Assembly (NCBI GenBank): GCA_043817315.1
Contig: JBDRGY010000002.1
Location: 1,046-65,045 of the forward strand
DNA length: 64,000 bases
Source of the DNA: Patescibacteria group bacterium
GTDB taxonomy: Bacteria; Patescibacteriota; Patescibacteriia; JBDRGY01
Direction: 5' to 3'
The translations under genes were made by a program, and so were the position numbers. Each line of letters opens with the position of its first letter. Within the stretch, counting starts at the first letter, position 1. The notes beneath the pieces are model-generated. The model saw only the letters and a program-made list of their open reading frames with translations, had not been told where the DNA came from and searched no databases. Below, piece by piece: positions 1 through 63,313 of this stretch.

Positions 1-3000
1 ACTGTTTCTGAGGCTGCTGAAGTAGCACCAGCGGTATCTTTGGCTTTTACCCGATAATAATAAGTTTTAGTGTTGTCTAGCCCGACATCCAGGTAACCAT
101 AGGTTTCTGTTTCAGCAATTTGAGTAAAGCTATCGTCATCATCTATTGATCTTTCGATAACATAAGCAATTTCCTCATCCGTGGCCTGAGCTCCGTATGA
201 GCTGGCTGAAGTCAAAGGGTCCCAGACAATAGTAATTGTATATGACTGTCTTTCTCGATTGGATGAATCAGTAATAATCATGCCCGTTGGCACAGGCGGG
301 GAAGCGGTATGTGCCTCAAAGTTGACCGAATCGTAATTGTCATAGTTAACATTACTGGCATCATCTACGGCTACTACGTAGAAAGTATTATCTCCTTGTT
401 GAGTGGCATAAGCCCCAGGACCTAAGGTGGTTTGAGTGGTGTAAGAAGTATTGGTTTCGGTGGGAGTCGAATTGACTGAGTAGAAATAACCCTCAATAGT
501 TACTCCTTCATCTACCGGAGCACCCCAGGTGAATTTGAATGAGTTGGTGGTGTTACTGGTTGGCGTAACCGCTAAGTTAGTAGGGGCTGATGGAGCATCT
601 TCTGTAGTAAAGGTGTAATCAGTGGAGTAGCCGGTATTGCTATCACTGTCTGTCCATTTGGTCCGGTAGTGGTAAACGGTATTGGGTTTTAAACCGACTA
701 GAGTTACTTCGTGAGAGGTGACTGAATCTGCTTGACCCTGTTCATTACCATAACTAGTGGTGGTCCCGTATTCCACGAAGGAGGATCCTTCTCTATCAGT
801 CAGCCATTCCACTACCGCTGATTGAATCCTAGTTGCTGCTCCAGGGTTTCCCACCAAATTAGGCGGTTCATAGTACCTGCCCCTGGCTTGTTCACACACT
901 TCTGTCGATAATGCTGAAGTGGCTTCGGCGTTGTCTACTGCGGTAATCCGATAACAATACCAAGCATTTTGGGTTAAACCGGTGTCTAGATAACCGGTTC
1001 CGGTTACTTGAGATATTTCGGCATAGGTATCACTGTCATCTTCTGACCGATTAACGTTGTAATGGTCTACCGTACCAAAAGAAGGAGTATTCCAGGTCAC
1101 AGTTAAAGAATAGGTCTCTAGTTCTTGACTAGAGGTGTCAGTCACAATCACTCCTTGAGGAATACCTGGGGCGGTAGTGGTGGCCGTAAAATCGACTGAG
1201 GAATAGGCTGTCCATTCAATATTATCCACTTCATCAATGGCTACTACGTAGAAAGTGTTTAACCCTTGTCTGGTGGCAAAAGCACCTGACACTTCTGTAC
1301 TGGTTGTGTAGGTGGAATTGTCAGCGGTTGGTTCCTGGTTGACTGAGTAGTAATAACCGGCAATATCATTTTCATGGGTGTCTGGTTCATTCCAGGAAAG
1401 GGTAAATGAGTTAGTGGTTGAAATTTCCGGATCAACGGCTAAATCAGTCGGTTCTGATGGAGCAGAAGCAGACCAGTAGTATTGGACAGAAGTGTAAGAT
1501 GAATTAACATTACCAGCTACGTCCTTTGATCTGACATAAAACTTATTAATACCTTCCTGGTAAGCTTCGATGGAAGATATTGTAGTCTCTGAAATACAAG
1601 TGTCAGTCGCTCCAGCTACTCCTGTTTTGTAGCAATACTGATCAATGCCGGAATGGGCGTCGGAGCCGGCTGACCAGAGAAAGGTAAAATTGTCTTGGTT
1701 ATTAGTATAGCCAGCCGGGTCAGCGGCTACCACTCCGGGGTTAGTGGGCTCTGTACCGTCGTATTTGTAAATAAAAGCAGCCCAAGCTGAATCAGTTACC
1801 TGGCCAGCCGCGTCTCTGGCTTTGATTCTTAAATAGTAAGTAGTGCCATCTACCAAGGAGGAAGCAGTATAGGTGGCTGTGGTTCTAAGAGTTCCTGAAG
1901 TCGGTTCACAATCTACTGCCCCAAAGCACACCCAATACCCGGCATAACCTCCTGACATACCAGAATCACTATCATCATCTCCTGACCAGGTGAAATACGG
2001 TCCGGTGTGGTTGTACCATGTGTCTGTGGTAATGGCATCACCCCCGTTTTCCGAATAGCCATTGACTGTATCTGGATTAGTGGGATCATCCATATCCTTC
2101 ATGTAGTCAAACTGGTAGTCAGCTACCGATGGATTGGAAACACCATCACTACTAGTCAAAGTAATTTTCACTTGAATATATCTATTGGTGATATCACCAA
2201 CTAGGGCCACCATTTCAGTCCTTGTTTTAGTTTTAGTTCCTGATGAAGTATAAGTATCAATAGTGGTCCAAGAAGACCAGCCCGTACTGCCATCTGCGCT
2301 ATGTCTCATTTCAAACTTAGCAGAAGTATTGACTGGAGTAGTCACATTGGTTGTAAAGGCAGTGGAACCTCCAGCACTACCGTCTCCCCAGGTGTAGATG
2401 TATTGGGCATCCAGATTTTGGGAAGTATAGGTGCCGGGGGATTGGAGGGAGGCCAACTCACTGCCCAAAGAAGTGGAAGGCTCTGTAGACATAATTTTAT
2501 GAGCTTGAAAATCATCGAATCTTGCTATACCGGGGTAATGAGAAAATCCAGGATAACCCGAGGCGAAATTAGAATTTGTATCAGTCACCGTAAGTTCCCA
2601 ACTGCCGGGTTCAGCCTGCCCCACTTCCCACACCTTCATTTTCAAATCGTAATTAATAAATTGAACCTTAAAATAGTATTGAGTTTCTACCACATTAACT
2701 GGTGCTGCTGTGCTAGTCATTAGTTGCCAGGCTGCACCTACTCTTCTGTATAAATACAAGTTACTACTCCATCTTCCAACCATATAAGAATTGTTGGCGT
2801 CTTGATATCTGCCGCTAGATGCTAAAAGTTTGTGGCTAGTATCAAACACTTCTCCGGTTACTTTAAATATCTGTTCGTAGTCTGCCAATGTACCGACAGA
2901 GGTGTTCCAGAACGCGTACCAGTTGCTATTAACATCAACCCTATACTCACCGCCAACAACTGTAGCTGATGCCAAGGTTCCTGCCATCGATGCACTTGTC

Positions 3001-3677
3001 CAACCATCTGCATTTCCATCTTCAAAATCATCCCAAAAAGCAAAAACTCCGGTTCTGTCCACTGGAGGACTGACTGCAGAATCATTACCATAATACATAT
3101 AATAATCCGTATCAGTAGACGAGGCCGGAATAGCCGCTTGGGTTTTTAACTGAATTGTTGTATCTGATTGATTCCATGATTCTCCGTCAGCTAATACTCG
3201 ATCAAGTTCGTTGTTGGCACCGCCATCCCAGTAGACAATTCTAATATCATCTCCGGAGACCAATGATTTACTGTTGGTAACTAAGTCATCATGATCTAAT
3301 TCCAGGGAAACAGTATAGTCTGTCGCCATTTCCGATCCAATATTATTGGTAACGGTGATTTGTTTGCGAAAACTATAGGAACCGTTCCACCAATTTGATC
3401 CTCCGTCACCATTGATTTCGATGGCATCACCGGTAACCGTAATATCATCCAATGTGCCTAAGTTCCAATCAGCATCTGATGTAATGGTGACTGAACCGGC
3501 TTGAGGAGCGGCCAGGATAATCGGCCATTGAACTATGGAAACTACAAGGGCTAATAACAAAAATACCGAAATCACCAGCTGAATTCGGTATCTTATTTGG
3601 TAAACTCGAAGTCTATGCAAGGCTTGCTGCAACCTTGTTTTTAACTCGCTAATTTGCGATGTCGGATTTCTCCGCAT
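1..3677 (-). CDS. Giant membrane-anchored surface protein, paralog 3. Only the N-terminal >=1225 aa are present; the C-terminus lies beyond the left window edge.
   Basis: Absent from the ORF track because it has no stop inside the window. My translation of the minus strand from the ATG at 3677 (MRRNPTSQISELKTRLQQALHRLRVYQIRYRIQLVISVFLLLALVVSIVQW...) stays open to position 1. The N-terminus, the FN3-like modules (NTTNSFKFTWGAPVDEGVTIEGYFYSVN...) and the DNA (541-600 vs 5581-5640) are paralogous to the 1688-aa neighbour. The N-terminal part looks DUF2341/LamG-like (YSFRKQITVTNN...DYTVSLELDHDDL...GDDIRIVYWDG). Confidence 0.85.
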   Translation of the reverse strand, partial: MRRNPTSQISELKTRLQQALHRLRVYQIRYRIQLVISVFLLLALVVSIVQWPIILAAPQAGSVTITSDADWNLGTLDDITVTGDAIEINGDGGSNWWNGSYSFRKQITVTNNIGSEMATDYTVSLELDHDDLVTNSKSLVSGDDIRIVYWDGGANNELDRVLADGESWNQSDTTIQLKTQAAIPASSTDTDYYMYYGNDSAVSPPVDRTGVFAFWDDFEDGNADGWTSASMAGTLASATVVGGEYRVDVNSNWYAFWNTSVGTLADYEQIFKVTGEVFDTSHKLLASSGRYQDANNSYMVGRWSSNLYLYRRVGAAWQLMTSTAAPVNVVETQYYFKVQFINYDLKMKVWEVGQAEPGSWELTVTDTNSNFASGYPGFSHYPGIARFDDFQAHKIMSTEPSTSLGSELASLQSPGTYTSQNLDAQYIYTWGDGSAGGSTAFTTNVTTPVNTSAKFEMRHSADGSTGWSSWTTIDTYTSSGTKTKTRTEMVALVGDITNRYIQVKITLTSSDGVSNPSVADYQFDYMKDMDDPTNPDTVNGYSENGGDAITTDTWYNHTGPYFTWSGDDDSDSGMSGGYAGYWVCFGAVDCEPTSGTLRTTATYTASSLVDGTTYYLRIKARDAAGQVTDSAWAAFIYKYDGTEPTNPGVVAADPAGYTNNQDNFTFLWSAGSDAHSGIDQYCYKTGVAGATDTCISETTISSIEAYQEGINKFYVRSKDVAGNVNSSYTSVQYYWSASAPSEPTDLAVDPEISTTNSFTLSWNEPDTHENDIAGYYYSVNQEPTADNSTYTTSTEVSGAFATRQGLNTFYVVAIDEVDNIEWTAYSSVDFTATTTAPGIPQGVIVTDTSSQELETYSLTVTWNTPSFGTVDHYNVNRSEDDSDTYAEISQVTGTGYLDTGLTQNAWYCYRITAVDNAEATSALSTEVCEQARGRYYEPPNLVGNPGAATRIQSAVVEWLTDREGSSFVEYGTTTSYGNEQGQADSVTSHEVTLVGLKPNTVYHYRTKWTDSDSNTGYSTDYTFTTEDAPSAPTNLAVTPTSNTTNSFKFTWGAPVDEGVTIEGYFYSVNSTPTETNTSYTTQTTLGPGAYATQQGDNTFYVVAVDDASNVNYDNYDSVNFEAHTASPPVPTGMIITDSSNRERQSYTITIVWDPLTSASSYGAQATDEEIAYVIERSIDDDDSFTQIAETETYGYLDVGLDNTKTYYYRVKAKDTAGATSAASET

Positions 3678-3773
3678 GGTTGAATCTATTTTTGTTTTCT
3701 TTGGATTAAATACCAAAATACAACGCTCTCGCTATTTAAAGCGAGTCGTCATTGGCGTTCTATATTATATCAC

Positions 3774-3805
3774 AAAAAGGGGCTTAAGTCAAAGTCCCCT
3801 TTTTA
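3774..3805 (-). terminator. Hairpin terminator between giant paralogs 2 and 3
   Basis: AAAAGGGG...CCCCTTTT hairpin directly after the stop at 3825. On the minus strand it is followed by a TATAAT-like box ahead of the 3677 start. Confidence 0.5.
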
Positions 3806-3824
3806 TCTTTTTCCCTATACTTAG

Positions 3825-6800
3825 CTAAAACAAATTTCCCATATTACTCATCCAAGAGAAAGTATCAGACAGATTATCTATTACGATTTGTAAAAATGAT
3901 TCTCTCTTTCTGGAGGTTAGGACAGAGTAGCTATCAGATAGGGTTTCATTGTCTGCTTTATCAGTTGCCACAACGCGGAAATGGTAGGTTCTGGCTGGTT
4001 CCAGGTCTTTGATTACCATGATGTGGTCAATCACTAGTTCTGGATTTACATCGGTTGATCCGGTGTAAGTGGAAGAAGAAAGTCCTTCTCCGTATTCCAA
4101 TTGGGAAGAAGTTGGTTCATTGGTCATCCAGGAGACAATAATCTGGACTGAAGCGGTATCACCAGACCCCACAGTATTAGCCTCATATCTAACATCAGAA
4201 ATAATAGGCGGCGTAGTATCTTCTAAAGTGGTAAAGGATTCTTCGGGGGAAACTGCTTCGTAACCGAATTGATCCCTGCCCCTGACTGTAAACTGGTAGG
4301 TGGTGGCATCTTCCAGTCCAAAGACCAGGACACTGTGATCAGTTACCAGGGCGGTATTGCCTTGAGTTTTGGAAGGTGTGTCTTCATTACCGTATTCCAC
4401 CTCTGAAGTAGTGGGTACGTTGGTGGTCCATTTGACTTCGGTCTGGCCTTCAGCCTTGTTTTCTGATGACACACTTAAAACTCTGGGGAAAGTAAGGGTG
4501 GTAAAAGCATAATCCCCTGATTCCGGTGCATTGTCGGTAGCATCTAAACCAGTAGGCCGAAAATGATAAGTGGTTCCGTCACTTAAGCCTGACAATTTCA
4601 AGGTGTGAGATAGGGTTGAAGAACCGGTAGTGTCGTAAACTACGGAGCCATAATCTGTAGTGGTGCCATAATCAATCAGTGAAGTTGTTTCTTTATTGGT
4701 TTTCCAGGAGATAGTGGCTTCATATAGTTTAATATCACTAACCACAACTTCAGAAACCCGGGGCGCTTCCAGGGTGGTTAAGCTACTGATCGAGGACAGG
4801 GCAATGTTTCCGTCAATATCCCGAGAACGAATACGGTAATAATATTTGGTCTCAGCATTTAGACCCTCCAAAACTACAGTGTGGTCGTCACTCTCTTCAA
4901 TGGTTCCCTGCTCTTCGCCCAAATCTTCAGTCAAGCCATATTCAGCGTGAGAATCCGCCTCTCGGTCTGTTTCCCAAGTAATAGTGGCTGTAAAGGAATC
5001 AGGAGTGACTGTGGGGCCAGCTGAAATCGTAGGCGGCGTCCGGTATCTGCCCTCTGGAATCTCGGAAACTACAGTGGAGGCAGCAGATTGAGCTCCGGCA
5101 TTGTCTTTGGCCGTTACTTTATAGTAATAAGTGGTTTCATTAGATAAACTGGTATCGATGTAGGCAATCGATTGAGTTTCGCTGATATCTTCAAAGGTCT
5201 TATTGTCAGTCGAGCGTTTGATTATATAAGCTACCTCTTCACCTTCACCAGAACTTATAGTAGTCGGTGGGTCCCAAGTTAGGGTCAGCATATACTTTTC
5301 AGTGTATCTGTCAGACGAATCAATGATTAACATATTGGTGGGAGCACCCGGCGCCGCCGTATTAGCCTCGAACTCTATGCTGGCATGATTGTCGTAGTTG
5401 ATGTTACCGGCATCATCGATAGCTACTATGTAAAAAGTGTTAGTACCTTGTTGGGTGGCATAAGGTCCCGGGCCTAAAGTGGTCTGGGCAGTGTAGGAAG
5501 AGTTGGTTACACTTGGCTCCTGATTAATTGAATAGTAGTAGCCCTCTATGGTTACCCCTTCATCAACCGGTTCCCCCCAGGTGAATTTGAAAGAGTTGGT
5601 GGTGTTACTGGTAGGGGCAACTGCCAGGCTAGTTGGAGCTGATGGGGCATCCGCTGTTTCAAAGGTGTAATCACCAGAATAGCCGGTATTGTCGTCCTCA
5701 TCAGTAAACTTTACTCTGTAATGATATGTGGTATCCGGTTCCAAACCGATCAGGTTAACACTGTGAGAGGATAGATGATCATCCTGGCCGGCTTCGCTAC
5801 CATAGGCTGTGGTTTCCCCATATTCCACGAATGAAGAACATTCTCTGTCTGTTAACCATTCAATAGTGGCTGATTGGATCCTGGTTTCTGCCCCTGGGTT
5901 ACCGACCAGGCTGGGAGCTTCATAATATCTGCCTCTAGCTTGTTCACAGACTTCGCTGGAAGCTGCTGAGGCTGCCTCGGCGTTGTCGGTGGCTTTAATC
6001 TGGTAGCAATACCAGGCATTCTGGGTTAAACCGGTATCCAGATAACCGGTTCCTGTTACTTGGGATATTTCGGTGTAAGTATCCCCGCCATCATCTGATC
6101 TTTCTACTTTGTAGTGATCAATTCCTCCGCCTACTTGATCCGGTTCTTCCCAGGTAACGGTTAGTCTAAAGGTGCCTTGTTCTCTGTTAGAAGAATCAGT
6201 GACGATAATTCCGGTAGGAATACCGGGGGCTGAGGTTGAGGCTGTAAATTCTATGGAAGAATAGGAACTCCAGTTCTTATTGCCGGCAGTATCTACTGCC
6301 ACCACGTAGAAAACATTAGCCCCTTGCTGGGTGGCAAAAGCATCTGGGCCAATGGTGGTTTGGGTGGTGTAAGTAACATTGTTAGCGTTAGGAATAGCGT
6401 TAATAGCGTAGTAATAACCAGCTATAGTAGTATCATGGCTGGCTGGTTCCAGCCAGGAGAAAGTAAAGGAATTAGTGGTATTAGAGGCTGGATCTACTTG
6501 TAGATTCTGAGGTTCTGATGGAGCGTTGGCTGAATAATAATAGTTTACTGAAGTGTAGTAATCAAGCAGATTTCCAGCCACATCTTTGGACCTGACGTAA
6601 AAAACATTAGTGCCTTCCTGGTAAGAGGTGATTCCAGAGACAGTGGTTTCCGCAATACAGGTATCGGTGGCAGCCGGTGCCCCTGTTTTGTAGCAGTATT
6701 CACCAATGCCGGAATGGGCATCGGAGCCGGCATTCCAAGTAAAAGAATAACTATCTTCACTGGAAAAACCAGCTGGGTTGGGTAGGATCCCAGAGGGGTT

Positions 6801-8891: not shown

Positions 8892-8894
8892 TTA

Positions 8895-11800
8895 TTAAAA
8901 CAAATTGCCGATGTTTCCTAACCAGGAGAAAGTCTGTTCTAGGTTGGAGATAACTATCTGCAAGAAAGATTCTCTGGCCCTGGAAGTTAACACTGAATAA
9001 TCGTCCGATTTAGTTTCGTTTCCAGCTTTATCTACAGCTATTGTTCTAAAATGGTAAGTTCGGGCCGGCTCCAGGTCGGGTATAATCATCAAGTGATCCT
9101 GCACCAGTTCCGGATTAATATCGGTCGAAGCTGAATATGAAGTTGACCCCAGCCCCTCCCCAAAATCAGCCGCGGTAGTGGTTGGCTCATCAGTTCTAAA
9201 GGAGACAATAATCTGAATTCTGGCTGCATCACCCGATCCCACTGTATTGGACTCATACTTGACGTGAGAAATGGTAGGCGGCGTAGTATCCTCTAAGGTT
9301 CTAAAGTTGTTTTCTACTGAAACGGCCTCGTAGCCGAATTGGTCGCGGCCCCGAACCACAAAATTGTAAATAGTTGCATCATTTAAGCCAAAAAGCAAGA
9401 CGGAGTGATCGGTTACCAGGGCAGTATTACCTTGAGTTTTGGACGGTTCATTTTCATTGTAGTATTCCACTTCCGAAGTAGTGGGCACATTGGTGGTCCA
9501 CCTAATCTCTGTTTGACCTTCGGCTTTGTTTTCCGAGGTAACATCAGACACTCGCGGAAAGGTTAGGGTAGTAAAGACATAATTATCCGAATTAAATTTA
9601 TTGCCGGAAGCATCTTCTGCATAAACTCTCAAATTATAGGTGGTTCCGTCTGCTAATCCTGTCAGTTTAATAGTGTGAGTAAAGCTAGTAGAGCCAGAGG
9701 TGTCAGTGTAGGTTAAACCATAATCCGTAGTAGTCCCATATTGAATCTGGGTAGTCGTTTCTTTATTAGTTTTCCAGGAAATTGTCGCTTCATACAACCT
9801 AATATCAGTAATCTCCATTTCCGATACCCGCGGCGCTTCTAGAGTAATAAATGAGGTTACGTCGGAATAGGCTTCATTTTCATCTCGGTCAATGGATTTT
9901 ACCTGGTAGTAATAAGTAGTTTCTGGATCTAAACCGGTAATCGTCACCGAATGATCATCAATTAAGTCAGAAGTTCCCTGTTCTCGATCATAATCTGTAG
10001 CCGAAGTTCCAAACAGGACAAAGGAGGAGGCCGGTCTTTCTGTTTTCCAGGTGACGGTGGCCGCAAAGGAATCAGGTACTATGGCCGGTCCAGCTGTAAT
10101 TTCCGGCGGAGTGGTATAACGACCGTCAGCTATTTCTTCAACTGGATCAGTGGCCGCTGAAGCGGATCCGGCTTTGTCAGCTGCTTTTACCTTGTAAAAA
10201 TATAATGTCTCAAATTCTAAATCAGTATCGATATAGGCAGTAGATTTGGTGGTGGCAATAACCTCATAGTCATTGTCCTCTTCAACCGCTCTATATATTG
10301 TATAGGTAATTTCTTCTTCCAGATCTTCTTCGACTGCATCTTTTACGATTCCAGAGGCACTGGGAGGATCAACCGAATTCCAACTGACCATTATTCGATA
10401 TTCTTTATCGGCCCGGTTGGAGACATCAAAGACTTCAGGATTAAGAGGAGCATCCGGCGGGATGGTATGAGCTTCAAAATCCACTACCGCATAATTGGCA
10501 TAATTTACATTACCGGCATCATCAGTGGCCACTACGTAGAAATTATTTATTCCCTGTTGAGTGGCTGCCGCAATCGGGCCTACTTCCGTATGAGTAGTAT
10601 AATAGACATTATCTTCGTTGGGCGGGGCATTAATACTGTAGTAATAACCTCCGACCGTAATTCCCTCGTCTACCGGCTCGGCCCAAGAGAAAGTGAAGCG
10701 ATTAACCATGTTTGATTCCGGATCAACTGCCAGATTGACCGGAGCGGAAGGGGCACCCAAGGTGGTTACTTCGTATATGGCTGATTCCCCGGTATTTCCA
10801 TCTTGGTCCACCCAGACTAATTTATAGTAATAAAGGGTGTCCGGTGATAGTCCAGTGACTAAAACCTCATGCTCGTCAACCAACTCTGAGGTGCCGGTTT
10901 CTTCTCCCAAACCTTCAGTCGTTCCGTATTGGACAAAAGAGGTAGCCGGATGAGGAATAACATTACCCAAACGATCTTGATCTGGCAAAGTCAGCCACTC
11001 GACCAAAACGGACCTGATGTAAGGAGTTACCGTCGGCTGACCGGACATAGTTGGGGCAAATTTAAATTTACCTTCCGGCTTAATACTTTCTACTGCCGAA
11101 TTACCGGAAGCGGCATTCCCACTGCCAACCGCTCTGATGAAATAACTATAGGTAATGGTGTTGTCCAAACTGGTATCTAAATAACCCAAAGTGGTAGTTG
11201 TAGCAATGTTGGTGTAATTATCTGGGGGATCAGCTACTGTGGATGGATTCTCACAATCTTCCTCACAACGATAAACTTTAAAGTTCTCGGCATTGGCCGT
11301 TTCATCCCAAGTCAGAGTGACTGAATATTTTTGAGTGGAACGATCAGAGGAGTCAGTCGCCTGCAAACTGGCTGGCGGATCTGGAGCAGTAGAAGTGAAG
11401 TCATAAGTTGTAGAGGTATAATTATCGTAATCAATGTTATTAATCACATCAGCTGCCACCAGATATAAAGTATTAGTCCCTTGTTGGGTAGCCGCTGAAA
11501 AACCAGGTAATAATCTGTTGTCAGTCTGATAGGCCGAGGTCCAACCACCGTCCGGACTGGGGGTAGTATTGCCGGCCGTATTGGTACCACAATTTTCGGC
11601 GCTAGGTAATTCATTGATTGTGAAACAATAACGTAAAATTTCATTAACATCACAAGGAGTCTGACCCAAACAGGTAGCCGGTAAGCTCCAGGAAAAGGAA
11701 AAAGTGTTATTGTTTGTGGCTGAAGTAGGCGTCGCCACTAAATTTTGCGGGGCTGTTGGCGGACTACCGGCATAGTAATAAGTAGTAGTGGCATAAGAAG

Positions 11801-14800
11801 AATAGTTGCCCGCCTCATCCAGGGCTCTAACATAGAAAATATTACCTCTGGTTCGATAAGCGGTAATTTCGGTTATGTGATTGTCATCAATGCAGGTATC
11901 AACAGCGCCGGGGGCCCCGGTTTTATAACAATAATACTCAACCCCGGAACCACCGCCATCAGTTGACACGTCCCAAGAAAAATCAAAGTCATTAGTTGAG
12001 GTGTAACCCGAGGGTGTGGCCGATACGTCAGATGGGTTAGAGGGATCAATAATATCTAATTTATAGGTAAAAGTATTAGTCGGATTAGTAGTGATATTAC
12101 CGTTATTATCGACAGTTTTTATTATCAAATAATAAGTATCGGAGGTGAGGGCAGAGGCCGCCTGGGTAGCTGCATTCCAGGAACCGTCATTGCCGGAGGC
12201 TGAATATAAATTAGTGCCGGAAACATAAGCCAGGTTAGTGGGATCGCTGGCATCATCAACCGGATCTTTGCCGCTGTCATTCCCAAAATAGACATAAAAT
12301 CCTGACAATCCAATTCCGCCGGCATTATCTGCGCCGGTCCATTCAAAGTAAGGTGTAGCGTCATTAACCCAAGTATCAGTCGCAATCTCTGTTCCCCCAT
12401 CTTCGGTATAGCCGGTTGCTGAAGTCGGGTTGGTTGGGGCCGTTCCGTCAGTATAATAACTCCAAGTTAGATCATCGACCGTCGGTGAATAAAGTTGGTC
12501 AGTCACAAAATAAATTCTAACTTGTCCATACTGAGCCACGGTAGAATCAATGCTGTAATAATTAGTGCTACTAATTTCCCGATTATTGGAAACCGCTGTC
12601 CAGTCCCCCCAATTGACGTCATCTTCATCATCAGCGCAGCCGGCATTAGAACAAGTTCTAGTTTCTATACTAATAGAAGTATTAGCCGGTTCGGTTACAT
12701 TGACCGTTAGTCCTCCGTAGCCATAAACCCCAGCCTCAAAATCCAGAATTTCTGAAGTCCAATAACCGTTACCCTCAAAACCGGTGCTGGAAGTGGCCAC
12801 CACGTAACGTTCCATTGAAGTGGTATATTCTCCGCGGAAACCCAAGACCACATTATTGCCGGTCATTACCAGGTCACCGTATTCGAAGAAAGAAGTTGTG
12901 TCTCGTGTACTCCAACTATCTTCCGAGATGTCATAAACGTACATTTCATTGCCATTGGGCTCATCACCGCGCGGGATTAAAATATTTCCCTGACCGTCCG
13001 GCACGCAGGCATCGCCGTAGCGCATATTACCCGGAGCCAATGACAGAGTACCGGCCACGTCCCAAGTTTGTGAACCGATATTAAATCGATAGATATCGTC
13101 TTGATTGTTACCACGCACCATATAAATATAACCATCTCCGCCGTTAGCAGCACAACCACCAGTATAAACAGTTCCGGGGATAGCCGAGGCAACTGTCTCC
13201 CAGATATCTGTATCAATTGTGTACTTATAAAATTCTGTGGTGTTGGCGCCTCGGGCCGTATAGATAGTATTGGTTCCATCAAACACCAAATCCGATCCGT
13301 AATTAGTTTCGTTAGCCGCCGTATTGGTGTTATCCAATCTAGTCCACTTATCATCATTTATATCGTAGCGCCAAAAGGTTCCTTCATTTTCCGTTAAGCC
13401 GCTTTCTCCCGGTAATAGATAGACTCCATCATATTGGTCACTGCTATGATTTATATATTGGGCTGACGCTCCCGGTCTAACCCGCATAGGTGCATTGGCT
13501 CTGCGCTTCCAAACATCATTGGCGATATCATAAGACCACCACTCATTGGAATTACCGCCCCTGGCCACATACAGCATATCGTTATCATTATCATAAGCCA
13601 CGGCTCCGTAGTAAAAACCATAGTTGGTATATGTATGAGGCAAGGTCGGAGTTTTCCAGCGATTTTCAGAAACGTCATAGGCCAGCAGGGCATAATCAAC
13701 CTGATAGCCCCGAATGGTGTACATGGTGTCATTAGAAGGAACGTAAACCAGGTTGCCAGCCCCTCCCTGGTATTGAGTAGTCGGCAAATCATCCAACCAT
13801 TCCCAGTTTTCATTGGCAATGTCATAACGCAGAAAACCGTTAGCTGCATAACCCCGCACTAGGTAAAAATAACCATCCAAATAATAGGCGGAGGCACCAT
13901 AATGGGTCCAGATGGGCACGCTTTTTTCATAAGACCAGGTGTTGGCCGAGACCCTATAGGAATAAAAATCGGTATCGCCATAACCTCTGGTGGCATACAG
14001 ACAGCCACCTTCGTCACTGCAATAATCACCATTGGGCACATATACTAAAGTACCGCCATAATAAACCAATTGGTCAAAACCGGTCAGCTGAGTCCAATCA
14101 TCAGCCGTTTCTCCTTCTCCGACATCGGTAATAATGTTGTATTTCCAGAACTCATTGGTGGCATCTCCCCTGGTGGCATAAATAGCATTGGCGCCATCAT
14201 AGGCCAGTTGACTACCATAATAGATTTGGGACCCTTCGAAATCACTCAGGTCTGTCCAGGTGCCGGCATTAACGTTGTAGCGGCGGAAAGTGGCGGTGTT
14301 GTTACCGCCGGTGGCAAAAACACAACCTGCCGAATCGGCACAATAGGTACCGGTTGGCACATAGACCATACTGGCGCCACCGTAAACCCCCGATCCGTAA
14401 TTGGCCAGTTGAGAATAAGTTTTATCGGCTACCGAGTAAGCGTAAAATTCCTGGCGGTTGTAACCGCGGAACATAAAAATGGTGTCATCGCCGTCATAGG
14501 ACAATCCCGATCCGTAGTAACCGCCGACATTATTGGCCACCCAGGGAATGGGTGCTTCGTTGGTCCAGATGCCGTTGCTGACTGAATCCAAAGTCAGGCT
14601 GGTCCCGGATTCAGCCGCCGTATTGATATTGGTCTCCAAAGTTCCGGTCGCTTGGAAATCGGCCTGGACCGTCCAGGTATTGGTACCGGCCGGAGAAATA
14701 CCGTTATAGGTATAAGTAAAGATAGTCTCTACATCATCCGTATTGCCGGCATCATCCTTGGCCGCCACCCGCAAATAATAAGTACTGCTGTTGGTCAGAT

Positions 14801-17800
14801 CGGTATTGACTTCGTAAGTGGTTCCGGTTTGAAAATAATCTTCGGAACTGGTCGGATCGTGAGAGGCGTTGGTAGTCCAGGACAAGTAATACCCGGCCAA
14901 GCCTGATTCGGCGTCCACAGCCCCGGTTAGTTCGAAGTAAGGATTAATATAATAGTAGGAATTGCCGGTGGTTAAAGCAGTTCCCTTGGTTGAATCAGCG
15001 TAACCGACCACAGTCGGGTTAGTCGGATTGACTGAATCCTTTTCGTAGTTAATCGTAAATTCAGAAACAGTTGGAGTATTATCGTCATCCGAATTTAAAA
15101 CCACTTTGACCTGAATATAACGATTAGCCGAAGAACCAATGGTGGTGCCGGAAACTTGAGTCCAGTCCTCCCAGGAAACTTGGTCATCAGAAGTCCTGGT
15201 GTAGTAGTCAATTGTACTACCCCCCGGCTCTAAATCAGTGGCCGTAAAACTGTTAAACGAGGTAGCGTAAGTCAGATCGTAAGTCGGAGAAATCCAACTG
15301 GCTGTGGGAATGTAATCATCAGAATCGGTAGTAAATTTATAAATGGAATTGGTATCAAACCCTCGGCGAATGTACATGGTATCAGTGGCATCATCATGAG
15401 CCATGCCAATGCCACGGACAAAATTATCAGGAGTATCACTGGCCCGGCTCCAACTATCTCCCGAGATGCTGTAGCGCCACATAGAGGTGCCGAAATTGCC
15501 GGTAATGGCGTAGATACTGTCATCTCCGTCATAGGCCAACACTGCGTTGTAATAGGAACCTTCCGGTAAGTCGGCCAATTCGGTGAAGTCATCGCCAACC
15601 GGATCGTATTCGTAAAATTGAGCCCGATAATAACCGGCTAGCATATACACTTTGTTGCCATCGTTGGTTATTCCTGCACCATAATAAGCGGTCACCGGTA
15701 GATCTTCTGTAGTCCAACTGCCATCATAATGATAAATATCGTCAGTATTGTTGCCTGCCTGAATATAGACGTCACCATCACCAAAACAGGTGATTCCCCC
15801 TCCTTCTTCCACCGCTCCCGGCATACTGCCAATACTGGACCAGCCTCCGGCATCATTGCTGATGTCATAACTGTAAAAATTAGTTGTGTTAATACCCCTG
15901 GTCAAATACAGTTCTCCATTGCCGTCATAACACAGCGAGCCGCCCCGGCTGATATTGGCTAAGCCGGTCGAGGTCATGGTGTTCCAGGCTCCATCGGCAA
16001 TATCATAACGATAGAAAATGGTGGTATTTCTACCCTGGGCCATAAACAAACACCCGGTGGCATCAGAACAACCGTCTTCACTGTTGGGCACAAAGGTGAT
16101 CAGATCGCTGTCGTAATCATTGCTGGCAATAGCCGGGGTGGCAATAGAGTCCCAAGCCCCGGCAGTAATGTCATAACGCAAGAATTCCGGCCGGTTGATT
16201 CCGGGCAGAGCATATATATAGCCGTCAAAGTAGAGGAGAGTACCGCCTTCATCAACCGTTAACCCCCCCGGCATATCCGGCGGATTATCAAGATCTTCCT
16301 GCCATTCCTGGTCAGCAATATCGTACATCATAAACTCGTCATTGTTGTAACCGGTCATGGCGTAGATATTTCCGTTGACAGCGTCAACCGCCATGGAACT
16401 GCCGTAGCTAATCCGGCCGCTGTTGCCCAGGGTGGTCGGTACATTGGCAAAATTGTAAGACCATTGAGCCAGGCTGATATCATAACGGAAAAACTCGCGA
16501 TTGTTGCTGCCCCGAAAAGCGTAGATACAACCGGTCTCACAATAAACCGGACTAGTGCCATAAGAAACCGCTGAATAGACCAAGGGGTGGCCGTTGCCGG
16601 TATAAATCTGATAAGGATAGGGAATTGAAGAAATGGTGTCGTTCCAAGTATCAGTGGCAATGTTGTATGACCAAAACCCGTCCCGGCTGTTACCTTGCGT
16701 GGCGTACAGTTTACCGTTATTGCCACTGACCAGATCCGAACCCAAACCCCAGATGTCCGGCGCATCGCTTAATTGGGTCCAAATATTATTGGCAATATCA
16801 TAGCGAAACAGAAAGGGCACGCCGTTGGTGTCGTCCGAACCGTCCTGCCCGTTGATGGCATAAATATAACCGTCATAATAAGCTAGCGAGCCTCCGTAAT
16901 AGAAACCGGTTGGCGCATCAATCAGTAATTTCCAGATATTTAACTCCGGATTATAACGAAAGAAGCCCGGTTGGTTGCCACCCACGATCATGTAGATGTA
17001 AGTACCATCAGTGGTTAAATCTGCTCCATAATTGGCGCCTTCGTAAGTATAGATGCCATAGCCACGCTGATTGGTGGGATAACCCGGAGTATCTGCACTC
17101 CAAGAACCAACTCCGCCACTGGCAATTTGCAGATCACCAGAGGTTGTGGTCATGTCTAGTTGGTTAGGATAATATTGCCCGGCTTGCCACTCGGTTTGGG
17201 AAGAGACTGTGTAGGTAGCTGCCGTAGCGTGTACCAACAGTTGCTGAATTGATCCGGCCACTAGGGTGCCAATAATCAAAATTACAAAAATCGAAATAGG
17301 AGAAAAGTGCCACCACTTCTTTTTTCTAAGAACAATTAAAGGTTTTATTTTACTTTTTTCTTTTTTACGACGTTGCTGGGCCGATTTGCTAATTGCCTTT
17401 TGCCAACTGGCATGTTTTTGGGAAATTCTACCCGGGATAGCTATTATTGTTTTTATAAATCCAGTAGTTAATCCAATAACCCGCCGCCATCTGGCCTGAT
17501 TTACCTTTTTGGTAGTTTGAATGTCTTTTTTAAGATATCTCTTGGCTTTCAACTGACGGGCTCTAACGACACTTTTAACTTGCTCTCGTTTTTTAACCGG
17601 TTTAACAAAAATACTGGCTGTCTTCTCAAAGCCAGAACGCATAAGCTGGGGAATTTCTAATTTATCTTTTAGATTGAAAGAGTATTTAAAACCCTTGGGA
17701 CGACTAAAAACTTTACCGGAGTAACTGTTTCCTCCAGTTTTTTTGGACGTTTTCCCCAGAAATCTACGTGTCCCCATAGATTTCAACTTGTTTTTTTGGT

Positions 17801-17813
17801 TTGTATTTTTCAC
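8895..17813 (-). CDS. Giant surface protein, paralog 1 (2972 aa). It has a ~165-aa Lys/Arg-rich cytoplasmic N-terminus, a single TM, about 24 Kelch-like propeller blades in two blocks, FN3-like modules, and the same C-terminal region as paralog 2.
   Basis: Single 8.9-kb ORF with TM WHFSPISIFVILIIGTLVAGSIQQLL. I counted ~24 recurrences of the blade motif (F/W/M)(F/Y/W)(R/S/K)Y(D/N)I....W (FFRYNPELNIWKLL, LFRYDIANNIWTQL, FWRYDINDDKWTRL and others). The C-terminal ~700 aa align with paralog 2. The stop lies 3 nt before the paralog 2 start, so the two look like an operon. Confidence 0.9.
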   Translation of the reverse strand: MKNTNQKNKLKSMGTRRFLGKTSKKTGGNSYSGKVFSRPKGFKYSFNLKDKLEIPQLMRSGFEKTASIFVKPVKKREQVKSVVRARQLKAKRYLKKDIQTTKKVNQARWRRVIGLTTGFIKTIIAIPGRISQKHASWQKAISKSAQQRRKKEKSKIKPLIVLRKKKWWHFSPISIFVILIIGTLVAGSIQQLLVHATAATYTVSSQTEWQAGQYYPNQLDMTTTSGDLQIASGGVGSWSADTPGYPTNQRGYGIYTYEGANYGADLTTDGTYIYMIVGGNQPGFFRYNPELNIWKLLIDAPTGFYYGGSLAYYDGYIYAINGQDGSDDTNGVPFLFRYDIANNIWTQLSDAPDIWGLGSDLVSGNNGKLYATQGNSRDGFWSYNIATDTWNDTISSIPYPYQIYTGNGHPLVYSAVSYGTSPVYCETGCIYAFRGSNNREFFRYDISLAQWSYNFANVPTTLGNSGRISYGSSMAVDAVNGNIYAMTGYNNDEFMMYDIADQEWQEDLDNPPDMPGGLTVDEGGTLLYFDGYIYALPGINRPEFLRYDITAGAWDSIATPAIASNDYDSDLITFVPNSEDGCSDATGCLFMAQGRNTTIFYRYDIADGAWNTMTSTGLANISRGGSLCYDGNGELYLTRGINTTNFYSYDISNDAGGWSSIGSMPGAVEEGGGITCFGDGDVYIQAGNNTDDIYHYDGSWTTEDLPVTAYYGAGITNDGNKVYMLAGYYRAQFYEYDPVGDDFTELADLPEGSYYNAVLAYDGDDSIYAITGNFGTSMWRYSISGDSWSRASDTPDNFVRGIGMAHDDATDTMYIRRGFDTNSIYKFTTDSDDYIPTASWISPTYDLTYATSFNSFTATDLEPGGSTIDYYTRTSDDQVSWEDWTQVSGTTIGSSANRYIQVKVVLNSDDDNTPTVSEFTINYEKDSVNPTNPTVVGYADSTKGTALTTGNSYYYINPYFELTGAVDAESGLAGYYLSWTTNASHDPTSSEDYFQTGTTYEVNTDLTNSSTYYLRVAAKDDAGNTDDVETIFTYTYNGISPAGTNTWTVQADFQATGTLETNINTAAESGTSLTLDSVSNGIWTNEAPIPWVANNVGGYYGSGLSYDGDDTIFMFRGYNRQEFYAYSVADKTYSQLANYGSGVYGGASMVYVPTGTYCADSAGCVFATGGNNTATFRRYNVNAGTWTDLSDFEGSQIYYGSQLAYDGANAIYATRGDATNEFWKYNIITDVGEGETADDWTQLTGFDQLVYYGGTLVYVPNGDYCSDEGGCLYATRGYGDTDFYSYRVSANTWSYEKSVPIWTHYGASAYYLDGYFYLVRGYAANGFLRYDIANENWEWLDDLPTTQYQGGAGNLVYVPSNDTMYTIRGYQVDYALLAYDVSENRWKTPTLPHTYTNYGFYYGAVAYDNDNDMLYVARGGNSNEWWSYDIANDVWKRRANAPMRVRPGASAQYINHSSDQYDGVYLLPGESGLTENEGTFWRYDINDDKWTRLDNTNTAANETNYGSDLVFDGTNTIYTARGANTTEFYKYTIDTDIWETVASAIPGTVYTGGCAANGGDGYIYMVRGNNQDDIYRFNIGSQTWDVAGTLSLAPGNMRYGDACVPDGQGNILIPRGDEPNGNEMYVYDISEDSWSTRDTTSFFEYGDLVMTGNNVVLGFRGEYTTSMERYVVATSSTGFEGNGYWTSEILDFEAGVYGYGGLTVNVTEPANTSISIETRTCSNAGCADDEDDVNWGDWTAVSNNREISSTNYYSIDSTVAQYGQVRIYFVTDQLYSPTVDDLTWSYYTDGTAPTNPTSATGYTEDGGTEIATDTWVNDATPYFEWTGADNAGGIGLSGFYVYFGNDSGKDPVDDASDPTNLAYVSGTNLYSASGNDGSWNAATQAASALTSDTYYLIIKTVDNNGNITTNPTNTFTYKLDIIDPSNPSDVSATPSGYTSTNDFDFSWDVSTDGGGSGVEYYCYKTGAPGAVDTCIDDNHITEITAYRTRGNIFYVRALDEAGNYSSYATTTYYYAGSPPTAPQNLVATPTSATNNNTFSFSWSLPATCLGQTPCDVNEILRYCFTINELPSAENCGTNTAGNTTPSPDGGWTSAYQTDNRLLPGFSAATQQGTNTLYLVAADVINNIDYDNYTSTTYDFTSTAPDPPASLQATDSSDRSTQKYSVTLTWDETANAENFKVYRCEEDCENPSTVADPPDNYTNIATTTTLGYLDTSLDNTITYSYFIRAVGSGNAASGNSAVESIKPEGKFKFAPTMSGQPTVTPYIRSVLVEWLTLPDQDRLGNVIPHPATSFVQYGTTEGLGEETGTSELVDEHEVLVTGLSPDTLYYYKLVWVDQDGNTGESAIYEVTTLGAPSAPVNLAVDPESNMVNRFTFSWAEPVDEGITVGGYYYSINAPPNEDNVYYTTHTEVGPIAAATQQGINNFYVVATDDAGNVNYANYAVVDFEAHTIPPDAPLNPEVFDVSNRADKEYRIMVSWNSVDPPSASGIVKDAVEEDLEEEITYTIYRAVEEDNDYEVIATTKSTAYIDTDLEFETLYFYKVKAADKAGSASAATDPVEEIADGRYTTPPEITAGPAIVPDSFAATVTWKTERPASSFVLFGTSATDYDREQGTSDLIDDHSVTITGLDPETTYYYQVKSIDRDENEAYSDVTSFITLEAPRVSEMEITDIRLYEATISWKTNKETTTQIQYGTTTDYGLTYTDTSGSTSFTHTIKLTGLADGTTYNLRVYAEDASGNKFNSDNYVFTTLTFPRVSDVTSENKAEGQTEIRWTTNVPTTSEVEYYNENEPSKTQGNTALVTDHSVLLFGLNDATIYNFVVRGRDQFGYEAVSVENNFRTLEDTTPPTISHVKYESNTVGSGDAARIQIIVSFRTDEPTTTAADFGEGLGSTSYSASTDINPELVQDHLMIIPDLEPARTYHFRTIAVDKAGNETKSDDYSVLTSRARESFLQIVISNLEQTFSWLGNIGNLF

Positions 17814-17995
17814 AAATACAACGTTAATTAACCAACTTCCACCTTTTTCAAAAAAGCTGGTTAATTCTTTATCATTATATCATTATTTCTGTATTTAGTC
17901 AACTAGGTAAAAATTGACCATTCCTGTTTAGACAGCCGATTTTTAGCAATCCCCCAGGTCTGCTATACTATAGGTATTAATCCTAAATATATCCT

Positions 17996-18148
17996 ATGAA
18001 TAACCAAAAAGAGAAAAAGAAAGTAAGCGTTAAAACCAGCAAAAAACTGGGCATTTCTACTAAAGTACTGCTCGGCTTAGGAGTTCTTTGTGCTTTTGCC
18101 ATCGTTACTGTCGGTATTATTAGCATGTTAGCGGAACGAGCCCGCTAG
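17996..18148 (+). CDS. Possible small membrane protein (50 aa)
   Basis: ATG-to-TAG ORF below the track cutoff: MNNQKEKKKVSVKTSKKLGISTKVLLGLGVLCAFAIVTVGIISMLAERAR. It has a basic N-terminus and one hydrophobic helix. No homology evidence. Confidence 0.3.
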   Translation: MNNQKEKKKVSVKTSKKLGISTKVLLGLGVLCAFAIVTVGIISMLAERAR

Positions 18149-18379
18149 GGTAAAAACATTGACTTTTGCCCGATTCTGTGCTAAAATAAAGGTAGGAATT
18201 AAGAAATAAAAATGAAAAACAAAAACGAAATCCAAAGCGAAAAGTTTGTTTTTGACAACTATTTGGTTGTTGAAAGGTATTCAGTAACCACACCGTGGTA
18301 TGAAAACGTTTGGCAATTAATGATTGAGACTCCCAAGCGTTTTTTTCTTAGTTTATTCTAGATCCCTTTTCCAAAAACC

Positions 18380-19420
18380 ATGCATATAGACGAATTATTT
18401 AAGATTGCCGTAAAAAAAGGAGCCTCTGACCTGCATTTAGTGGCCAATATGCCCCCTGTTTTAAGGATGGATGGAGAATTAACAGAAATCCCGGACAAGA
18501 GCCCTCTCTCTTCCGAGGAAACCAAGGCTTTGGTTTTTGATATTCTAACTGACAGGCAAAGGGAGAAATTCATCGCTGAAAGAGAACTGGATATGTCTTA
18601 TGAGATAAAAGGAGTATCTCGTTTCAGGGTCAATGTTCACTGGGAAAGAGATAATGTCGGGCTGGTAGCTCGCGTTATTTCCTCTAAAATCCCCAGCATG
18701 GAAGAGGTAATGATGCCCGAAATAGTTTACGAACTTTGCCGTTTGAAACAGGGTATGATCCTCTTAACCGGGCCTACTGGCTGCGGCAAGTCAACTTCTT
18801 TAGCAGCCATGGTCAACTTGATAAATAATGAGCGCCGTTGTCATATCGTTACTCTTGAAGATCCTATTGAATTTTTATTTACATCCAGTAAAAGTGTAGT
18901 GAAACAGCGTCAGATGGGCACTGACTTTCTCTCTTTTGCCCAAGCCTTAAAAAGAGTAGTCAGGCAGGACCCCAATGTTATTATGGTTGGCGAGATGCGA
19001 GACTTAGAGACAATTGCTGCCGCTATTACCTTGGCAGAAACCGGTCACCTGGTCTTGGCCACCCTACACACTTACAACGCTTCCCAAACTATTGACCGTA
19101 TCATTGACGTCTTCCCGCCCCATCAGCAAACCCAAGTCAGACTACAGTTATCTCTGTTTTTAAGAGGTATTATTTCCCAACAGCTCCTACCAAAATTGAG
19201 GGGCGGCAGAATCGCCTCTCGTGAAATTCTAATTAACTCCCCAGCTATTGCTAATCTAATTAGAGAAAACAAAATCGCTCAAATAAAAACGGTAATCCAG
19301 ACTTCGGTTGACAGGGGCATGTTTACCATGGACCAAGGCATCCGTGATTTGTTTGAAAAAGGCTTGATTAGAGAAGACGTGGCCACTGCTCACATGGTCA
19401 ATCCGGAAATGCTACGGTAA
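18380..19420 (+). CDS. pilT: Type IV pilus retraction ATPase PilT
   Basis: 346 aa. Walker A GPTGCGKST, VGEMRDLETI, TGHLVLATLHT, and an N-terminus MHIDELFKIAVKKGASDLHL typical of the PilT/PilU family. Confidence 0.9.
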   Translation: MHIDELFKIAVKKGASDLHLVANMPPVLRMDGELTEIPDKSPLSSEETKALVFDILTDRQREKFIAERELDMSYEIKGVSRFRVNVHWERDNVGLVARVISSKIPSMEEVMMPEIVYELCRLKQGMILLTGPTGCGKSTSLAAMVNLINNERRCHIVTLEDPIEFLFTSSKSVVKQRQMGTDFLSFAQALKRVVRQDPNVIMVGEMRDLETIAAAITLAETGHLVLATLHTYNASQTIDRIIDVFPPHQQTQVRLQLSLFLRGIISQQLLPKLRGGRIASREILINSPAIANLIRENKIAQIKTVIQTSVDRGMFTMDQGIRDLFEKGLIREDVATAHMVNPEMLR

Positions 19421-60030: not shown

Positions 60031-60284
60031 TGGTGCCGAGGGGCAGAATCGAACTGCCGACGCAAGGATTTTCAGTCCTTCGCCCCGCCCGCCGAACAAC
60101 GGCGAACTTGGAAGTAATCTACCTTTGGTGCCTGGGGCCAGAATCGGACTGGCGACGCAAGGATTTTCAGTCCTTCGCTCTACCACTGAGCTACCCAGGC
60201 TTCAAAGACAGACTACAAATTTCTTTTTCAATCAACTATATTCGCTCGGCGTTGCGGACAGGTCTACCACTGAGCTACCTCGGC
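60031..60284 (-). tRNA. Interrupted outer tRNA-Phe(GAA). 5' part 60284-60263 (positions 1-23), 179-nt insert 60262-60084, 3' part 60083-60031 (positions 24-76 including CCA).
   Basis: The 5' part is GCCGAGG TA GCTC AGTGGTA GA. The 3' part is GC G AAGGA CTGAAAA TCCTT GCGTC GGCAG TTCGATT CTGCC CCTCGGC A CCA. The acceptor pairing GCCGAGG/CCTCGGC is perfect and all loops are canonical. The insert ends form a 9-bp helix (CCTGTCCGC / GCGGGCGGG, with 2 G-U pairs). Confidence 0.55.
60126..60200 (-). tRNA. tRNA-Phe(GAA), complete, nested inside the outer tRNA-Phe insert; its T loop is non-canonical
   Basis: GCCTGGG TA GCTC AGTGGTA GAGC G AAGGA CTGAAAA TCCTT GCGTC GCCAG TCCGATT CTGGC CCCAGGC A CCA. 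The T loop reads TCCGATT, so the near-invariant U55 is C. Confidence 0.75.
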
Positions 60285-61979: not shown

Positions 61980-61993
61980 TCCTTTGGCGATTA

Positions 61994-62034
61994 TGGTGGG
62001 CACGGATGGATTCGAACCATCGACCTCGTCATTA
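61994..62034 (-). other. 3' fragment of tRNA-Ile(GAT), positions 36-76 including CCA
   Basis: Minus strand: T AA TGACG AGGTC GATGG TTCGAAT CCATC CGTGCCC A CCA, directly after the bracket motif ...CCGTACGGCGGGCAGG. Confidence 0.65.
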
Positions 62035-62074: not shown

Positions 62075-62151
62075 TGGTGGGCACGGATGGAGTTGAACCA
62101 TCGACCTCGTCATTATCAGTGACGCGCTCTAACCAACTGAGCTACGTGCCC
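62075..62151 (-). tRNA. tRNA-Ile(GAT), complete, CCA encoded
   Basis: GGGCACG TA GCTC AGTTGGTTA GAGC G CGTCA CTGATAA TGACG AGGTC GATGG TTCAACT CCATC CGTGCCC A CCA. The leader CTACTGCTGG pairs with the trailer CCAGCAGTAG, extending the acceptor helix by 10 bp. Confidence 0.9.
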
Positions 62152-62232
62152 CCCAGCAGTAGACAAAAATAAACTTCCTATTGGTTGGGTTAATGTAAAA
62201 GTTCTTTGAGGCACCGTACTCCGGCAGGCGGG

Positions 62233-62379: not shown

Positions 62380-62448
62380 AAACTAAAAAGGATTTTCAAT
62401 ATCCAAGTATATACCAATTTATCAGAAAAACTTAGTTTTGACAAGTGT

Positions 62449-63284: not shown

Positions 63285-63313
63285 AAAAAAAGCCGATTTA
63301 AATAAATCGACTA
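63285..63313 (-). terminator. Hairpin terminator downstream of the 16S rRNA 3' end
   Basis: Minus strand: GTCGATTT ATTT AAATCGGC followed by T7. Confidence 0.55.

Follow-up and report, generated by a model that had tools for sequence, protein, structure and literature searches.

We analysed a stretch of 64,000 nucleotides (nt; the window) from contig JBDRGY010000002.1 (positions 1,046 to 65,045), in which three giant genes, here called G1, G2 and G3, lie side by side next to a pilT gene. The three are paralogues, and in relatives members of the same family adjoin a gene pair for an ATP-binding cassette (ABC) ATPase and a MacB_PCD/FtsX permease. On balance, we favour the reading that the giant genes are part of a Patescibacteria-wide cassette, and that they encode adhesin-like fibrils whose C-terminal helix would be handled by the ABC system. 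The NCBI source of two proteins of the locus (MFH1597791.1 and MFH1597794.1) is a metagenome-assembled genome (MAG) named 'Patescibacteria group bacterium'. An earlier first-pass annotation had described three co-oriented open reading frames filling about 28% of the window, and this holds (27.8%, all on the minus strand):

8895–17813, minus strand: G1, 2972 amino acids (aa), GTG start
3825–8891, minus strand: G2, 1688 aa, ATG start, identical to NCBI MFH1597791.1
<1–3677, minus strand: G3, open frame truncated at the window start, 1225 aa or more

The evidence for a cassette comes from the gene neighbourhoods of relatives. Scanning species-representative genomes for the family gave 375 confirmed loci. 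The neighbourhood counts given here refer to the best 80 of these 375, of which 72 extend for 1.5 kb or more downstream. In 67 of the 72 loci, an ABC ATPase and a MacB_PCD/FtsX permease are linked to the last giant gene, and the order of the cassette is giant gene(s), ABC ATPase, permease. The ATPase gene is placed as follows:

60 of 72 loci: less than 600 nt downstream of the last giant gene, followed by the permease
6 of 72 loci: 0.9–3 kb downstream
1 of 72 loci: divergent, upstream
1 of 72 loci (L005): convergent, adjoining

Gene calls in three homologue loci likewise place ABC_tran and MacB_PCD/FtsX genes beside the giant gene(s), with gaps of 0–3 nt in L001 and L004. In 9 of the 80 loci giant genes are arrayed in tandem, and one ABC pair stands beside arrays of 2–4 giant genes. 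The best models for the ATPase are LolD, FtsE and MacB, and those for the permease are MacB, LolCE and FtsX, while every NCBIfam equivalog cut-off was missed.

The two closest relatives of G3 carry the same arrangement. In L088, which is 65% identical to G3, the ATPase frame lies 88 nt downstream and the MacB_PCD+FtsX permease has 416 aa. In L091 (59% identical to G3), a Kelch-type G1-like gene is followed after a gap of 3 nt by a 1682-aa orthologue of G3 of the DUF2341 type, and then by the ABC ATPase and a 416-aa MacB_PCD+FtsX permease. Both loci have a common tail type, VLTSRKRESFLQLVISNLEETFSW. No ABC or MacB match was found anywhere in the window, where G3 runs off position 1. Since the L091 orthologue is 1682 aa long and carries the tail, about 460 aa of G3 appear to be missing, and since relatives carry the pair after this gene, an ABC pair is predicted just past window position 1.

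The second line of evidence is the C-terminal tail, which follows the last module of the stalk:

3828–3902, minus strand: C-terminal tail of G2, ending in ...SRKRESFLQIVIDNLSDTFSWMSNMGNLF, with an amphipathic helix at aa 1666–1685
8898–8969, minus strand: C-terminal tail of G1, ending in ...SRARESFLQIVISNLEQTFSWLGNIGNLF, aa ~2949–2972, same motif as in G2

The terminal helix of G2 is amphipathic (hydrophobic moment, muH, 0.40), and with a Kyte-Doolittle 19-residue hydropathy (KD19) maximum of 0.46–0.72 the tail contains no transmembrane segment. In a large subset of homologues the tail follows the consensus (I/L)T(P/G)(K/R)A(T/S)(D/E)xxLxLVIxNLxxxF(G/S)(F/W), in which a hydrophobic face is conserved and one Phe is invariant. 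A search of the giant proteins for the motif LPx[TSA][GAS] found none in the last 80 residues. A tail profile of 42 positions, run at E<=1e-3 against 1.84 billion cluster representatives (50% identity clusters), matches 1003 of them; in 148 of the top 150 matches it sits at the extreme C-terminus, and the matched proteins reach 3194 aa. Relatives that have the N-terminal module and fibronectin type III (FN3) repeats and are without the tail are also without an ABC neighbour (4 of 4, Fisher p = 1e-4), a comparison confounded by phylogeny.

The family is broad and, as we read it, specific to Patescibacteria. A database search with G2 returned 106 homologous proteins; the named ones belong to Patescibacteria (Woese-, Curtiss-, Levy- and Blackburnbacteria) and the rest are labelled only 'bacterium'. 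Among these 106, interchangeable heads stand on the same stalk: Kelch, FG-GAP/VCBS, LamG, DUF2341, RCC1 and FGE-sulfatase, with PF13385 present in some homologues. The record titles of the best 80 loci name Saccharibacteria, Microgenomates/Woesebacteria, Pacebacteria, Dojkabacteria, WWE3 and Nomurabacteria, together with MAGs of doubtful label. Thus L072 (CP011212.1) and several third-party annotation (TPA) MAG loci are titled TM6, Gammaproteobacteria, Pseudomonadales or Bdellovibrionales; these labels may be unreliable, since such loci are laid out exactly as in Pacebacteria or Saccharibacteria.

Individual loci show further features around the cassette. L011 has two distinct cassettes on one contig, each with a giant gene, an ABC ATPase and a MacB permease (1–4386 and 9740–16641). 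In L027, one of the 6 loci with the ATPase 0.9–3 kb downstream, a PAS/HisKA sensor kinase of 709 aa and two receiver-domain genes (12518–15394) separate the giant gene from the ABC pair; the same insertion was deduced from spacing in L029, L031, L062 and L076, and it hints at two-component control of the cassette. The tail-less relative P0070 of L085, which has no ABC/MacB neighbour, lies in a conjugation or type IV secretion system-like cluster (3822–19262) with a relaxase, TraG/VirB4-like ATPases, a TrbC-like pilin, a PrgI-like protein, an M23 peptidase and a resolvase.

The stalk of all three proteins is a string of FN3-like modules. The fn3 model (PF00041) scores 71.2 bits in G1, 98.8 in G2 and 55.8 in G3 (cut-off 25), and Pur_ac_phosph_N (PF16656) scores 81.2, 114.9 and 32.1 bits (cut-off 30). 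There are 11 FN3-like modules in G2 (aa 579–1663), 11 in G1 (aa 1789–2948) and seven in G3 ahead of the window edge, and a further one in G1 lies outside the stalk (aa 926–1039). A beta-sandwich ahead of the tandem modules is common to the three proteins. The AlphaFold2 (AF2) model of G2 1281–1688 (predicted local distance difference test, pLDDT, 90.6) consists of four FN3 domains and a 20-residue terminal helix, the latter of moderate model confidence only; it matches the FN3 strings of fibronectin and LAR with E values of 1e-12 to 1e-13. No Metallophos/PhoD catalytic domain was found in G1–G3, in which only models of the non-catalytic N-terminal domain match. In the Pfam check proposed in the first-pass annotation, FN3 and Pur_ac_phosph_N thus pass in all three proteins and Kelch passes in G1.

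The N-terminal ends differ in length and the heads differ in kind:

G1 (17247–17813, minus strand): basic region at aa 1–170 (50 K+R against 6 D+E), helix at aa 171–189
G1 aa 257–840: 12 Kelch-like blades, then a beta-sandwich and an FN3-like module
G1 aa 1095–1641: 11 Kelch-like blades, then a beta-sandwich and an FN3-like module
G2 aa 1–55: basic N-terminus and helix
G2 aa 56–118: SPWTQTDWSGG module
G2 aa 119–372: ConA/LamG-like jelly roll
G2 aa 373–480: CBM-like jelly roll
G2 aa 481–578: beta-sandwich
G3 aa 1–56: basic N-terminus and helix
G3 aa ~57–527: DUF2341-containing head
G3 aa 528–1225: seven FN3-like modules

Each protein starts with a K/R-rich stretch (30, 31 or 170 residues in the three proteins; 8–50 K+R against 1–6 D+E) and one hydrophobic helix (KD19 2.2–2.7), as had been noticed on first reading, and a second hydrophobic segment was not found in G1, G2 or G3. 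Just after the helix the family has a nearly invariant Ala in the motif A-(A/S)-x-SPWTQTDWSGG, which looks like a signal-peptidase site; given this conserved A-x-A-like site, the N-terminal helix may belong to an extended signal peptide that is cleaved off. The long basic leaders, which reach 170 aa in G1 and are similar in several homologues, could represent either extended signal peptides or genuine cytoplasmic tails. The three proteins are very probably extracytoplasmic, and we infer a location on the cell surface and a function in adhesion.

Kelch_6 matches G1 only (78.3 bits, cut-off 25.3), in which a self-derived hidden Markov model counts 23 Kelch blades. The LamG/DUF2341-like heads of the first-pass annotation stand in part. 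DUF2341 (PF10102) scores 27.2 bits on G3 aa 50–240 (cut-off 23.4), 23.0 bits on the full length, just under the cut-off, and 59.3 bits on the L091 orthologue of G3. Laminin_G_3 (PF13385), on the other hand, reaches only 19.7 bits (E 0.001) on a segment of G2, below its cut-off of 27.6, and the Pfam scan of G2 gave no significant head domain, which leaves the likeness at the level of the fold. In the AF2 model of G2 1–580 (pLDDT 82), jelly rolls match a trans-sialidase lectin domain, the clostridial neurotoxin Hc, CBM22 and the lectin module of Streptococcus sanguinis PilC (Foldseek probability 1.0, E 1.5e-6 to 1e-4), and by this model the G2 head is a concanavalin-like jelly roll in fold. Neither Pfam nor NCBIfam has a model for the SPWTQTDWSGG module or the C-terminal tail, and NCBIfam returned only spurious matches below threshold (CbhB, MXAN_2561, OmpL47). 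Toxin or enzyme cargo was considered as well and rejected, as Pfam and NCBIfam scans of G1–G3 revealed neither a catalytic nor a toxin domain. The adhesin-like role proposed on first reading is plausible and agrees with the modular lectin-like or propeller heads.

The paralogy is plain at the protein level. G1 1670–2972 and G2 468–1688 are colinear with 46% aa identity, G2 548–1272 and G3 497–1223 share 63%, and the sequence motifs picked out on first reading do recur within and between the three genes. The modules had also been taken to be highly identical in DNA and the repeats to be current substrates for recombination and size variation, neither of which is borne out: paralogous stretches are only ~69% identical, and their longest exact common run is 26 nt. 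A 20-mer match sits at 541 and 5593, and the pair quoted earlier (541–600 and 5581–5640) is off register by 12 nt. Within G2 a three-module unit is duplicated (aa 787–1082 and 1079–1380; window 5646–6530 and 4752–5657) with 44% aa identity and no detectable DNA similarity between the two copies. This old duplication is present in G3 as well as in G2 (44–45% aa identity). Modules 4–5 of G2 (2–3 modules) are missing from most orthologues, and the number of modules has thus changed over evolutionary time. The stalk is colinear across phylum-level relatives, and G1 440–2972 aligns colinearly with a frame of L091, on an independent metagenome contig, at 54% identity across 2560 columns. With so little exact identity, and a G2 duplicate that has lost its DNA similarity, the array is poorly suited to homologous recombination at present. 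Neither a collapse of repeats nor a chimeric assembly is likely, given exact repeats of at most 26 nt and architectures of G1 and G3 that are colinear in independent metagenome contigs.

Sortase-anchored adhesins of the MSCRAMM (microbial surface components recognizing adhesive matrix molecules) type consist of an N-terminal export signal, a ligand-binding head, an Ig/FN3-like stalk and a short C-terminal fixing element. The giant family has the same order of parts, with a C-terminal element that could play the fixing role, but it is without LPXTG, a C-terminal transmembrane segment or a basic tail, and its conserved neighbour in relatives is a MacB/FtsX-type ABC pair and not a sortase. Type VII ABC systems such as FtsEX-EnvC, LolCDE-LolA, MacAB-TolC and YbbAP-TesA act on the external side of the membrane with a dedicated partner or substrate (PMC12646458, PMC5985334). 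FtsEX also partners with PcsB/CwlO, and the known partners bind via helical elements (PMC12646458, PMC5985334, PMC7668044). The likeness is that in relatives a LolD/FtsE/MacB-class ATPase and a MacB_PCD+FtsX permease adjoin the gene of an exported partner, and that the giant proteins end in a helix. The difference is that this partner would be an FN3 fibril of 1400–3000 aa with a lectin or propeller head, and not a hydrolase activator, adaptor or carrier; the relatives' ABC pair, as said, also misses all NCBIfam equivalog cut-offs. Because the order of parts is that of a wall adhesin without LPXTG or a C-terminal transmembrane segment, and because type VII systems use dedicated partners, we propose the C-terminal helix as the element that the ABC system would recognise.

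Giant surface proteins and other appendages have been described before. Vampirococcus lugosii encodes membrane proteins of 1392–4163 aa with fibronectin, integrin, PKD and WD40-type domains, proposed to serve in host attachment (PMC8080830); they are similar in size and domain kinds, a likeness drawn from the description, while that paper gives no family-wide tail or ABC linkage and has 'ABC transporter' 0 times in its text. LapA and SiiE are giant repetitive adhesins encoded beside an ABC system, with a functional C-terminal signal (PMC6272769), and so resemble the giant family in size, repeats, neighbouring ABC system and C-terminal element. They differ in belonging to diderms, in their type I secretion system of ABC exporter, membrane fusion protein and TolC, in their RTX/BIg repeats and in having no N-terminal Sec signal, whereas the giant family has an N-terminal signal helix, no RTX match and, in relatives, a MacB-fold permease. 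Pam pili are appendages of Ig-like fold restricted to the Candidate Phyla Radiation (CPR) and found in Saccharimonadia and Microgenomatia (bioRxiv 10.64898/2026.03.03.709456). By the description in that preprint they are set apart, as they consist of small donor-strand-exchange pilins and membrane-anchored chaperones, and no giant proteins or MacB pair are described. The essential 'FN3'/'VCBS' proteins SEML1_0890 and SEML1_0891 of Southlakia (transposon sequencing, Tn-seq) have 196 and 566 aa and are not members of the giant family. In the searchable literature we found no paper linking Patescibacteria with MacB, FtsX or fibronectin, and neither there nor in Pfam or NCBIfam a description of the tail or the ABC linkage; the coverage is incomplete and this is not proof of novelty. 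Adhesin-like giant proteins were to be expected, while the conserved tail with a type VII ABC cassette appears undescribed.

Based on these results, we propose that G1–G3 would cross the membrane via Sec, and that the ABC system, acting on the external side of the membrane, would recognise the C-terminal helix and hold, or handle in an ATP-dependent manner, the membrane-proximal end of the fibril. The N-terminal head would project outward on an extended rod of ~11 FN3-like modules, some 35–40 nm long, and bind glycans or proteins of a host or other surface. A single ABC pair would serve every paralogue in the array. It is from synteny, co-occurrence and architecture that we infer contact between the tail and the ABC system. 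In a more specific form, an ABC mechanotransducer would be coupled through the amphipathic helix to the giant fibrils, so that ATP hydrolysis anchors, actuates or releases attachment organelles independently of sortase; we consider this form possible and doubtful.

Several observations weigh against the docking model. Relatives without the tail fall into a Microgenomates-like group of their own, and the class of the tail tracks the size class of the permease, as lineage would also predict. At the locus studied here, the presence of the ABC pair is a prediction from relatives. In cultured Southlakia, the MacB pair SEML1_0053/0054 does not adjoin a giant gene. Finally, an uncleaved N-terminal helix would place the heads next to the membrane and the tail at the distal end, which fits poorly with docking of the tail.

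A reading that extends the first-pass annotation would have N-terminally anchored adhesins working with type IV pili, with pilT as the functional link, and modules that recombine and so alter the size of the proteins. The pilT gene is as follows:

18380–19420, plus strand: pilT, divergent from G1, PilT/PilU family, NCBI MFH1597794.1

This gene is genuine (437.7 bits to TIGR01420 over residues 3–338, cut-off 319.1), it diverges from the array, and no other pilus gene was found in the 64-kb window, all as first described. A true PilT/PilU member beside G1, the single N-terminal hydrophobic helix of each protein, the lectin-like heads and a number of modules in G2 that differs from its orthologues are what such a reading would expect. 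On the other hand, a T2SSE-type ATPase lies within 10 kb of the giant genes in only 1 of the 80 related loci, and as a weak match, and the conserved neighbour is the MacB/FtsX-type ABC pair. We therefore judge pilT to be outside the system, as its adjacency is not conserved in relatives. A scan of all frames of the window gave no prepilin signal G|F-T-L-x-E, the supposed anchor could be cleaved at the conserved A-x-A site that follows it, and the low DNA identity of the repeats (~69%, exact runs of at most 26 nt, G2 duplicate without DNA similarity) speaks against recombining modules. Taken together, we hold this reading to be improbable.

Another reading is that the ABC system extracts the C-terminal helix from the outer leaflet, as LolCDE, HrtBA and YbbAP do with their hydrophobic substrates, and thereby releases the fibrils to the wall or medium or completes their export. 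One ABC pair for arrays of 2–4 giant genes suits such a function, as does an amphipathic tail whose hydrophobic face is conserved and whose Phe is invariant, and extraction of hydrophobic moieties is common among type VII ABC systems (PMC12646458). Insertion of the tail into the membrane is, however, not indicated (KD19 below 1, with a helix of moderate model confidence), the synteny fits anchoring equally well, and there is nothing obvious to retain a released protein on the cell; we regard extraction as rather unlikely. The giant proteins might instead be structural envelope or S-layer-like components of an ultra-small cell, and the ABC pair an unrelated envelope or antimicrobial-peptide transporter kept by ancestral gene order. 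This would account for a stalk that is conserved and colinear across classes in a very widespread family, and drug or peptide efflux roles are frequent for MacB-type pumps (PMC5985334). Yet the heads are swapped between paralogues and lineages, as for binding specificity and unlike a lattice, and no SLH or other wall-binding Pfam match was found in G1–G3. Gaps of 0–3 nt are kept across lineages that are 30–40% identical, and the ABC linkage is lost exactly where the tail is lost, which argues for coupling. We give an envelope lattice little chance, and the coupling of giant fibrils to the ABC system remains the reading that we favour.

The layout of the array suggests two similarly driven transcription units, G1–G2 and G3 onward, as a near-identical promoter-like motif precedes G1 and G3:

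17874–17902, minus strand: promoter-like site upstream of G1, TTGACT-N17-(TG)TATAAT, 11/12
3764–3792, minus strand: promoter-like site upstream of G3, TTGACT-N17-(TG)TATAAT, 11/12, extended -10

The spacer between G1 and G2 is 3 nt, in agreement with the first-pass annotation, and that between G2 and G3 is 147 nt. The latter had been credited with both a terminator and a promoter for G3. The promoter-like site is there; the hairpin (3779–3798) overlaps it, was called by the scan on the plus strand only (7 pairs counting G-T), and on the coding strand has ~4 G-C pairs by eye and is weak. The start codon of G1 is uncertain (GTG 17813, ATG 17777 or ATG 17642), and a search for a Shine-Dalgarno-like motif ahead of each candidate start found none. 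Between G1 and pilT lies a frame of 50 aa (17996–18148, plus strand) with a basic N-terminus and one hydrophobic helix; the NCBI numbering (G2 ...791, pilT ...794) allows one annotated gene besides G1 between G2 and pilT.

The remaining window contains housekeeping genes (RNase Y, ClpP, IF-2, NusA, trigger factor, H+-PPase), 13 tRNAs and the 3' part of a 16S rRNA gene. Two PMT-family membrane glycosyltransferases, similar to dolichyl-phosphate-mannose protein mannosyltransferases, flank a tRNA cluster (56631–58307 and 60357–62003, minus strand), and the two could glycosylate envelope proteins. Two tRNA-Phe(GAA) genes stand in tandem 22 nt apart (60031–60103 and 60126–60200, minus strand), the first exactly at the Rfam threshold of 29.0 bits. 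The spacer from the 3' end of the 16S rRNA to tRNA-Ile is unusually long at ~1.3 kb (62151–63452, minus strand) and holds frames of 157–215 aa (62449–63100). A CDP-archaeol synthase-like gene (CarS-like, PF01864; 45999–46538, plus strand) is present in this bacterial genome, adjoining genes for an acyltransferase and an AMP-binding enzyme.

Among the central questions still open for Patescibacteria, which account for a large part of bacterial diversity, is how they recognise and hold on to host cells; work so far has centred on type IV pili. The giant family, with 375 loci and ~1000 tail clusters, combines a conserved rod and swappable heads with what would be a dedicated ABC system of the mechanotransmission class. 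The tail would also be useful in annotation, as neither Pfam nor NCBIfam covers the C-terminal helix. Without the proposed coupling, ordinary large adhesin-like proteins remain. If the coupling exists, the cassette would be a new envelope system, with the fibrils as a novel type of partner for type VII ABC transporters, by which monoderm ultra-small bacteria would mount and control adhesins on their hosts in an ATP-driven, sortase-independent manner.

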